From Candidatus Thalassarchaeaceae archaeon (lineage in GTDB: Archaea; Thermoplasmatota; Poseidoniia; Poseidoniales; Thalassarchaeaceae), in NCBI GenBank assembly GCA_023700245.1, contig JAJPRE010000004.1, forward strand, positions 24,068 to 88,067: DNA of 64,000 nucleotides, read 5' to 3'. Below the pieces are notes generated by a model. The model was not told the DNA's origin. It searched no databases and saw only the letters and a list, made by a program, of their open reading frames with translations. Shown one piece after another: positions 61,242 through 62,822 of the stretch (within the stretch, counting starts at the first letter, position 1; the number at the start of each line of letters is the position of its first letter). The position numbers and the translations under genes were made by a program.

Positions 61242-62822
61242 ATGAAAACAGCAATAGTATGGTTTAGAAAATCTATCAGGATACATGATAATCCAGTTTT
61301 AACATGGGCAAATTCCTCTGAAGATATCGATTCGATAATTCCTATTTATATCATGGAAGATAAATGGAATCAAGATGAGGGAAGTATTCAAGGACAAAGT
61401 CGTTTGAATTTTCTCTACGACTCTTTGCTTGACTTGGACAGAAATCTCAAGGAGAATTATGGGGCAAAAATCTTAGTTTTCTCCGGAGATCCTGTTGAAA
61501 TTATAGAATCTATAATTAATAGTTTAGACAGTGAAATCAATTGGTTATTGTGCGATTATTGCTCTGAACCTAGAAGTAGGAATGAAATTAATAAAATTGA
61601 GAAAAATTTGACTAATTTGGGAATCCATAGCAAAGTATTTCCAACAGTAAATACCATTTTAGATGTTGAAAAAATCACACAATCAAATAATTTTATTAAT
61701 CCAAAATCATCAAAAGATATAGACAGAATTTTCAAAAAGAACCTCAAAATAAGTCCTGATGGATATCTAGTTGATGAGGCAATTCCAATCCCTCATAATA
61801 TTTGCACAGACTCATTAATATTGGAAGCTGTAATTAAAGGCACCCGAGCTTCAAAATATTATGTTCCATGCGAAGAAATCAGACAGAAATCAGAGCAACT
61901 AATATTGAAATCAGAACGAAATAGTCCCTACTTTCCGGGAGGAGAGAGAGAAGCATTGGCAAGACTCAAGAAGAAGGTTTCAGAAAGGCCTGACTTCGTT
62001 AATAATTTTAAAAAACCGAAGACATTTTCCACTAATGAAAAAGGAAATCCTATGGAACCTACAACTACAGGATTATCGCCATACATCAGTCATGGATGCC
62101 TATCTGTAAGACTTGTATGGAATGAATGTGCAAAGGCCCATTTCAACTCAAATCATACCAAGCCTCCGGAATCACTCCATGGTCAATTGATGTTCAGAGA
62201 AATGTTTTATCTCTTGTCTAGATCTGTTGAAAACTGGGAAGATGATGCCAATAATTCAAACTGTAAACCAATCAATTGGGGAGAATATAATCAGTCGAAG
62301 ATTATTGCTTGGGAGTCGGGAATGACAGGTTTCCCCTACATTGATGCAATGATGCGACAGTTAGATGAAACTGGTTGGATGCACCATTTAGGTAGACACG
62401 CAGTATCCTGTTTCCTCACTCGTGGCCAGTTATGGCAAAATTGGAAATATGGAAGAGATGTGTTTGAAAGAAAACTAGTGGACTCTGATTGGGCAATAAA
62501 TAATGGAAACTGGCTATGGCTGGCTGGAGTTGCACCCTTTTCTATGCCATATTACCGAGTGTATAATCCATGTCCCGATTCAAAATCTAGTTTGAATGTA
62601 GAGGCTATGGAAGCTAACTTTGTACGATTTTGGGTCCCAGAACTAGCCTCATATCCCTCAAAATATATTTTTGAGCCACATTTGGCGCCTTTAGAGGTAC
62701 AAAGATTATCAAAATGTATCATTGGTCAAGATTATCCTTTACCGATAATCGATAGGAAAGTAAGCCGAAGTGAAAATCTTTCGATGTTTAAGGAGAATCT
62801 AGAAAGACTCAAAAGAATGTAA
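61242..62822 (+). CDS. Cryptochrome/photolyase, eukaryotic (6-4) photolyase/animal-CRY type (start at [10 protein letters not shown])
   Basis: [75 protein letters not shown] and EPH.AP..Q...C.IG.DYP.PI. Confidence 0.92.
   Translation: [526 protein letters not shown]

Follow-up and report, generated by a model that had tools for sequence, protein, structure and literature searches.

The window analysed here is a stretch of 64,000 nucleotides (positions 24,068 to 88,067 of contig JAJPRE010000004.1, assembly GCA_023700245.1) from a surface-ocean archaeon of the Thalassarchaeaceae, Marine Group II (MGII) b, Poseidoniales. The gene under study encodes a protein of the (6-4) photolyase type, and its features and neighbours are collected in Table 1. 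The host metagenome-assembled genome (MAG) comprises 1.47 Mb in 50 contigs and is 82% complete. For the open reading frame, two start codons compete, ATG 61242 and an upstream ATG at 61170 which gives a longer frame. The N-termini of homologues from other genomes correspond to the equivalent of MKT..VWFRK and match the former codon. Together with the GGAAGG sequence located 6 nt before it, this alignment favours ATG 61242, which is likely the start of the protein. The A/T-rich stretch of the leader is a putative promoter.

Table 1. Features of the photolyase gene and of its neighbourhood, in coordinates of the 64,000-nucleotide window.
Feature	Position	Strand	Remarks
(6-4) photolyase-type coding sequence	61242..62822	+	ATG 61242, 526 aa plus stop
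Intergenic leader	61156..61241	+	A/T-rich taattattta 61220-61229; Shine-Dalgarno-like GGAAGG 61230-61235
N-terminal alpha/beta photolyase domain, PF00875	61251..61685	+	residues 4-148, 2.4e-21; usual antenna-chromophore domain
FAD-binding helical domain, PF03441	62181..62792	+	residues 314-517, 3.2e-62
STNEKG segment of the STN/STG..P insertion	62031..62048	+	+4-5 residues (or longer)
Lesion-pocket motif GQLMFREM	62184..62204	+	Q315 = Dm64 Q299; F318 for W302; M321 for Phe
Trp tetrad W346, W398, W401, W424 and FAD-N5-proximal N420	62277..62513	+	invariant 117/117
Catalytic H382 and H386 in HHLGRH	62385..62399	+	Dm64 H365/H369
R439-V-Y441	62556..62564	+	Dm64 R421 and catalytic Y423, by spacing from W426
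LNVE insertion	62592..62603	+	clade-A marker
Peptidase S15	58193-60064	-	conserved archaeal neighbour
CN hydrolase	60226-61155	+	conserved archaeal neighbour, directly before the leader
TspO/MBR tryptophan-rich sensory protein	57722-58102	+	PF03073, 1.4e-24
Acyltransferase-3	62840-64000	-	runs on to contig position 88217

The encoded protein is a two-domain member of the (6-4) photolyase/animal-cryptochrome (CRY) clade, here called Eu64, within the CPF (cryptochrome/photolyase family). In phmmer searches of the PDB, the best matches were the (6-4) photolyase of A. thaliana (2e-90) and the animal-like cryptochrome (aCRY) of Chlamydomonas (1e-89), followed by the Drosophila (6-4) photolyase and vertebrate CRY1/2/4 (~1e-84). 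The other classes came out at 7e-42 for class III cyclobutane pyrimidine dimer (CPD) photolyases, 4e-37 to 5e-28 for CRY-DASH and 3e-34 for class I. The protein stayed under all NCBIfam cut-offs for CRY-DASH, class I, the 8-hydroxy-5-deazaflavin (8-HDF) type, plant CRY and class II. A CRY-DASH identity was rejected on TIGR02765 (181.6 bits against a cut-off of 317), and a class I, 8-HDF-type or class III CPD identity on NF007955 and TIGR03556 (171.7 against 506 and 164.2 against 885 bits); class I/III enzymes were also ruled out by the pair of histidines standing where these carry N and M. [quoted passage not shown] In two maximum-likelihood (ML) trees, the (6-4)/CRY ingroup, to which the protein belongs, was separated from CPD I/III-type outgroups with a support of 100/100. 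An AlphaFold2 model built on 54 homologues (pLDDT 90.3, pTM 0.91) ends in a single helix. Its comparison with the PDB by Foldseek revealed only (6-4) photolyases or aCRY among the top 20 matches (TM 0.85-0.93), headed by CraCRY 5zm0 and the Drosophila (6-4) photolyase 3cvu (TM 0.86/0.90-0.92), with the clock cryptochromes ranking behind.

Residue conservation was scored in 117 full-length homologues, with identities down to ~51%. The two catalytic histidines, H382 and H386, belong to a 20-residue segment which begins at residue 379 (nucleotide 62376) and opens WMHHLGRH; both are invariant (117/117) and are replaced by N and M in the CPD-type outgroups. The same invariance was found for Y441, which is F or Q in the outgroups, and for K258, Q315, W426 and R439, the positions of K258 and Q315 being occupied by E in the outgroups. 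Numbering of the Drosophila enzyme (Dm64) was anchored by the PDB entry titles 'H365N' and 'H369M' and by motif spacing; on this basis, we take K258, Q315, W426 and R439 to be the equivalents of Dm64 K246, Q299, W409 and R421, and Y441 that of Y423. The four tryptophans of the electron-transfer chain are found in the contexts INW (W346), QLW (W398, the fourth and animal-type one), QNW (W401) and GNW (W424), and the asparagine close to N5 of flavin adenine dinucleotide (FAD), N420, in DWAIN. Two further motifs lie at residues 7-18 (12 residues) and 308-316 (PPESLHGQL). Downstream of DYPxP, the chain runs on for ~23 residues in the archaeal protein and for 19-30 in the 117 homologues, none of which carries a regulatory C-terminal extension beyond the photolyase homology region (PHR). 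An earlier note on this DNA, made from its letters alone, had already described a (6-4) photolyase/animal-CRY protein distinct from CPD class I, CRY-DASH and FeS-BCP enzymes, with both catalytic histidines, the N5-proximal Asn, all four tryptophans and no long tail. Re-translation and alignment reproduced its open reading frame and all the motifs, residue numbers and coordinates it quoted, while searches, and the phylogeny it had called for, confirmed the class assignment.

The genome was also searched for other members of the family. It encodes a class II CPD photolyase (G000 C1, L004:1219-2763, minus strand; 4.5e-64 with Methanosarcina mazei 2xry), and PF04244 gave no match in this 82% complete MAG, the three control genomes being positive. 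A third photolyase-family protein of 510 residues occurs in two diverged copies, each on its own contig, C29:~2200-3740 (L002:1357-2889, minus strand) and C14 (L003:114-1646, minus strand), one contig being only 2.8 kb long; a mixture of strains in the MAG could account for the pair. Its best PDB matches (E ~3e-38) are alike for DASH, CRY1/2 and plant CRY and it remains under all NCBIfam cut-offs, so that it may fall in a poorly described 'DASH-like/prokaryote-specific' group. The genome therefore holds three distinct photolyase-family classes. Since the other members are the class II CPD enzyme and this unclassed protein, with no FeS-BCP, the Eu64 protein appears, provisionally for a MAG of this completeness, to be the sole candidate for (6-4) photorepair. 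Two CofH-like matches had raised the possibility of an in-house 8-HDF antenna, which was rejected when they proved to be MqnE and MqnC; these radical-SAM genes, MqnE-like (C19, L025:1429-2646) and MqnC-like (C37, L026:1438-2604), point to the futalosine route to menaquinone.

The invariant active site, the lack of a tail, the presence of a class II CPD photolyase and the lack of an FeS-BCP lead us to read the protein as a (6-4) enzyme, and repair of this lesion is probably its main function. FAD would be bound in the C-terminal helical domain and the flavin photoreduced to FADH- along the chain W424-W401-W346-W398. The pyrimidine(6-4)pyrimidone lesion would be flipped into a pocket formed by K258, Q315, F318, W426, R439 and the H382/H386/Y441 triad, where blue or near-UV light would drive electron transfer from FADH- and, with His-assisted proton transfer, the restoration of the two bases. 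In the archaeon, such an enzyme would complement the class II CPD photolyase.

Relatives were collected by a scan of 1.84 billion representative proteins, in which scores dropped sharply past the prokaryotic cluster, the next-nearest sequences being those of marine protists. A second search, seeded with P0124, the closest neighbour outside the prokaryotes, brought in Amoebophrya, Durusdinium, Crypthecodinium ('6-4 photolyase'), Gymnodinium and MMETSP/EukProt transcripts. The main ML tree (78 rows, LG+C20+F+G4 with posterior mean site frequencies, CPD I/III-type outgroups) is rooted between two sister clades. Clade B (99/95) contains plants, Chlamydomonas aCRY, fish cry5, animal CRYs, Cafeteria and others, and clade A (100/96) contains alveolates and the prokaryotes, its eukaryotic members being identified as Amoebophrya, Durusdinium, Crypthecodinium, Gymnodinium, Polarella and Aureococcus. 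Within clade A, the prokaryotes form a single clade (100/99), the successive sisters of which are the P0124 group (98/97), the Amoebophrya/Syndiniales group (98/95), the core dinoflagellates (100/100) and a group of Polarella, Aureococcus and P0128 (100/96). When the long-branched and AT-rich P0124 group was removed, the prokaryotes became sister to the Amoebophrya group (97/94). An approximately unbiased (AU) test rejected the monophyly of the clade-A eukaryotes (delta lnL 46.7, p 0.008), and with it the idea that the prokaryotes are a mere sister of these eukaryotes. Two side observations concern the outer members of this clade. In a GC-rich (0.57) organism (L019:569-4795 and L020), two tandem photolyase-family genes of 527 and 525 residues lie ~1 kb apart; one of them is P0128, sister to the Aureococcus protein, with a basic KKPR tail. 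The Polarella glacialis protein P0125 (CAE8634727.1, 749 residues) has an Arf-GAP-like N-terminus fused to the photolyase FAD domain; the fusion may be genuine, or the gene model may be at fault in a tandem array of dinoflagellate genes.

Three rare sequence changes were mapped on this tree. The first, an insertion of 3-6 residues of the type LN(V/A) following a 10-residue motif, was present in 21/21 prokaryotic rows and in all the clade-A eukaryotic rows with sequence at this place, and absent from 29/29 clade-B rows and 6/6 outgroups. The second, the STN/STG..P insertion, is common to the prokaryotes, the core dinoflagellates, the Amoebophrya group and the P0124 group and is missing from the Polarella/Aureococcus/P0128 group, clade B and the outgroups, so that it coincides exactly with the node supported at 100/100. 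The third is GQL-x-FREM in place of GQLLWREF, with M321 found in all 43 clade-A and prokaryotic rows and in none of the 29 clade-B rows or 6 outgroups. On the ML-rooted tree each of these changes takes one step, against a gain and an exact reversal if the root is set on the prokaryotic branch. The insertions and the FREM motif thus support the nesting independently of likelihood. The replacement of W302 (Dm64) by Phe was rejected as a clean clade-A marker, Phe being also found in 4/29 clade-B rows. The C-termini differ as well: all the eukaryotic rows, P0124 and P0128 included, end in a basic KK-x-K/R stretch which looks like a nuclear localisation signal (NLS), whereas the prokaryotic rows stop soon after the PHR.

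Among prokaryotes, the gene has a narrow and patchy range. It was found in 46 of 301 Poseidoniales species genomes (~15%), spread over 11 of 26 genera and both families, and in 7 of the 9 genomes sampled from the own genus of the archaeon; in a sample of 401 Thermoplasmatota genomes, no match occurred outside the Poseidoniales. In the Opitutales (Verrucomicrobiota), 7 of 251 marine species genomes (~3%) carry it, with 52-57% identity, and more than 1000 relatives were found in metagenomes. The Opitutales gene comes directly after genes for a short-chain dehydrogenase/reductase and a class I/III-type CPD photolyase and faces that of an ATP-dependent DNA ligase, a cluster which looks like a compact UV/DNA-damage locus. 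It was seen at L011:1750-7261 (Ca. Seribacter sulfatis) and also in L012 and L014, the ligase being of the 'cisplatin damage response' type. All the archaeal copies form one clade (100/99), and in a prokaryote-focused tree this clade, two Opitutales clades and the lone metagenomic sequence P0120 form a polytomy, so that either the bacteria or the archaea may have received the gene first. The archaeal gene tree conflicts with taxonomy, a MGIIa genome being nested among MGIIb copies, and in two members of the own genus the copies reach just 65% identity and sit at different loci, in agreement with the 'patchwork of HGT' (horizontal gene transfer) described by Rinke et al. for the MGII gene phrB. 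One of these two copies is that of a PacBio-derived genome (L008:2599-3844), beside glutathione S-transferase and peroxiredoxin genes. Two Poseidoniales copies (G011:C35:2929-4497 and G193:C17:4823-6370) are each interrupted by a single in-frame TAA and may be decaying pseudogenes, which would fit a role of loss in shaping the patchy distribution.

Taken together, the tree nesting, the rare changes, the difference in tails and the narrow prokaryotic range favour a transfer from an alveolate to prokaryotes, and that the gene passed from a eukaryote of this kind to prokaryotes is likely. There would have been a single entry into marine prokaryotes from a marine alveolate resembling Syndiniales or dinoflagellates, followed by loss of the basic, NLS-like C-terminal tail and by further transfers and losses within the archaeal order, leaving a patchy presence in Opitutales and Poseidoniales. 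The full explanation, namely that a working eukaryote-class (6-4) photolyase was acquired once by marine prokaryotes from a marine alveolate, is given a probability of about 0.65.

Several points weigh against this explanation. On the side of function, the position of Dm64 W302 is occupied by F318 in 117/117 homologues, so that the tryptophan looked for there is missing; the 22 clade-A eukaryotes all have Phe too, and the change is an aromatic-conservative one, not known to be disqualifying. F0 synthase was not found in the genome (82% complete), its CofH-like genes being MqnC/MqnE, and a literature search retrieved no paper in which a protein of the prokaryotic clade or of the alveolate one is characterised. 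Because animal clock cryptochromes keep the His-His motif, repair cannot be proved from the sequence by itself. On the side of origin, the AU test does not reject the monophyly of all eukaryotes (delta lnL 33.3, p 0.069), a topology which is in effect the same unrooted caterpillar with its root shifted onto the prokaryotic branch. The outgroup branch is long (0.81+0.81), which makes the placement of the root the weakest part of the tree, and the groups submitted to the AU test were named after the tree had been seen. Finally, the P0124 group is probably eukaryotic, judging from its mRNA-like contigs, basic C-terminal tail and sparse coding.

The retention of the His-His motif by clock cryptochromes leaves room for a protein that is mainly a blue-light sensor, or a dual-function protein of the CPF1/aCRY type, and not a dedicated repair enzyme. 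Chlamydomonas aCRY, which acts both as a sensor and as a (6-4) photolyase, is among the closest structures, and the complete Trp tetrad would allow efficient photoreduction, which is a signalling feature too. Against this stand the lack of a C-terminal extension in the 117 homologues, the invariance of all the DNA-lesion contacts, the repair neighbourhood of the Opitutales copies, and a patchy, loss-prone distribution with in-frame stops in some copies, a pattern typical for accessory genes of UV repair. No CRY partners are known in archaea. A main role as a sensor, or a dual role, is unlikely, and (6-4) repair is retained as the probable function.

The placement of the root bears on a second alternative, in which the family root lies on the MGII/Opitutales branch and the eukaryotes, or the alveolates, received their enzymes from prokaryotes. 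The p value of 0.069 and the long outgroup branch both leave space for it, and the presence of the enzymes in three domains was taken as a sign of antiquity by Deppisch et al. (PMC9498864). The ML root, in contrast, splits clades A and B, each well supported, and with a prokaryotic root three characters, the LN(V/A) and STN insertions and M321, would all have been gained and exactly reversed, while the eukaryotes as a whole would have the alveolates as a paraphyletic grade at their base. The tiny and patchy range (15% of the Poseidoniales species and 3% of the Opitutales, with no other case among the 401 Thermoplasmatota) also argues against such a deep branch, which we regard as rather improbable. 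The still stronger proposal that MGII and Opitutales keep the prokaryotic ancestor of the eukaryotic enzyme, and later of the animal clock and magnetoreceptor cryptochromes, is very doubtful.

That a eukaryotic fragment was mis-joined or mis-binned with an archaeal contig is hardly conceivable: although a distance of 5.3 kb separates the gene from the end of its 92-kb MAG contig, the order of S15 peptidase, CN hydrolase and photolyase is kept with 94-97% amino acid identity in two independent MAGs of other projects, the same-genus PacBio-derived genome (6 contigs) has its homologue on a 533-kb contig, 46 species genomes hold the gene, and it is intronless, densely flanked by coding sequence and native in composition (its GC is 0.360, the genome mean being 0.361; its codon use correlates at 0.85, the 38th percentile). 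A chimeric join with eukaryotic DNA is excluded for practical purposes. A viral vector was considered and rejected for want of support: the CPF members found by the profile scan of IMG/VR, those of giant viruses and others, had identities of no more than 25-33%.

The earlier note had left the choice between a eukaryote-to-archaeon transfer, perhaps from algae or their viruses, and a deep prokaryotic branch. The first option is the one favoured by trees and insertions, the second surviving at p 0.069 in the AU test. The donor looks like a relative of Syndiniales or dinoflagellates and not like a green alga, and the viral route has no support, the IMG/VR contigs having yielded nothing closer than 33% identity. 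Nor was the event private to archaea, one prokaryotic clade being common to Opitutales bacteria and Poseidoniales archaea.

The neighbourhood of the gene gave some further observations. The S15 peptidase gene adjoins the photolyase gene also in another genus (locus L016). Directly downstream, the acyltransferase-3 gene has no same-place counterpart (E<1e-10) in L005 and L006, MAGs in which synteny is otherwise kept, which places the photolyase gene at the edge of a variable segment. The TspO/MBR gene lies 3 kb upstream; elsewhere, TspO is tied to porphyrin, light and oxidative stress.

The archaeal protein was compared with known enzymes. With Drosophila Dm64 (3cvu), Arabidopsis UVR3 (3fy4) and Xenopus/fish cry5 it shares the PHR fold (TM 0.85-0.92), the His-His-Tyr triad, the K/Q/W/R lesion contacts, the N5 Asn, the Trp triad and the absence of a long tail, and with the animal enzymes also the fourth Trp. 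It is 32-38% identical to them and differs by F for W302, Met for the next Phe (FREM), the LNVE and STN insertions, a longer interdomain linker and the lack of a basic, NLS-like C-terminus. The alveolate proteins (Amoebophrya, Durusdinium, Crypthecodinium, Gymnodinium), which stand closest to it in the tree with 42-47% identity, have in common with it the LN(V/A) and STN/STG insertions, FREM and the extended linker; unlike the archaeal protein, they bear C-terminal extensions ending in KK-x-K/R, and several have Tyr or Phe at the fourth electron-transfer position instead of Trp. The FeS-BCP enzymes (Agrobacterium PhrB, S. elongatus 6-4; PMC9178010) presumably act on the same substrate, likewise by light-driven FADH- chemistry, whereas their 4Fe-4S cluster, PF04244 domain, 6,7-dimethyl-8-ribityllumazine (DMRL) or 8-HDF antenna and different electron path are absent from the archaeal protein.

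Another prokaryotic case has been described in Gloeobacter (WP_011141747, WP_023172734), where an Eu64-class enzyme with a Trp tetrad, reported to share 50-56% identity with the enzymes of green algae and animals and to cluster near (6-4) photolyases of algae, was read as a horizontal transfer (PMC7560933); by this published description it appears to belong to clade B and to represent a separate transfer. Deppisch et al. (2022, PMC9498864) tabulated (6-4) photolyases in a 'Euryarchaeota archaeon', a Marine Group III archaeon, an 'Opitutae bacterium' and Verrucomicrobia TMED60, in a study which sampled no alveolates and contained no analysis of origin. Judged by N-terminal sequences, two of their entries, MBF60325.1 (MGIIa-like) and HAE11581.1 (matching L042), belong to the prokaryotic clade found here. 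The MGII papers name the gene phrB and infer bacterial donors, Verrucomicrobia included. The literature search yielded no paper proposing an alveolate origin, or a transfer from eukaryotes to prokaryotes, for this gene. The presence of Eu64 enzymes in marine archaea is thus already on record, while their alveolate origin appears to be undescribed.

The finding is incremental, since the enzyme class is known and the added value lies in its origin, which is not formally proven, and in the distribution of the clade. In the sunlit ocean, the MGII archaea count among the most abundant microbes, and ~15% of the sampled Poseidoniales species genomes, with some marine Opitutales, carry an Eu64 enzyme instead of the FeS-BCP to which (6-4) repair in prokaryotes is usually credited. 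If the alveolate origin is right, the presence in three domains would therefore be no evidence for the antiquity of Eu64. Being compact, intron-free and tail-less, with a full Trp tetrad, the archaeal protein would offer a convenient prokaryotic model for the photochemistry of (6-4) repair, and its gene represents a rare, well-resolved candidate for a eukaryote-to-prokaryote transfer between cohabitants of the photic zone.

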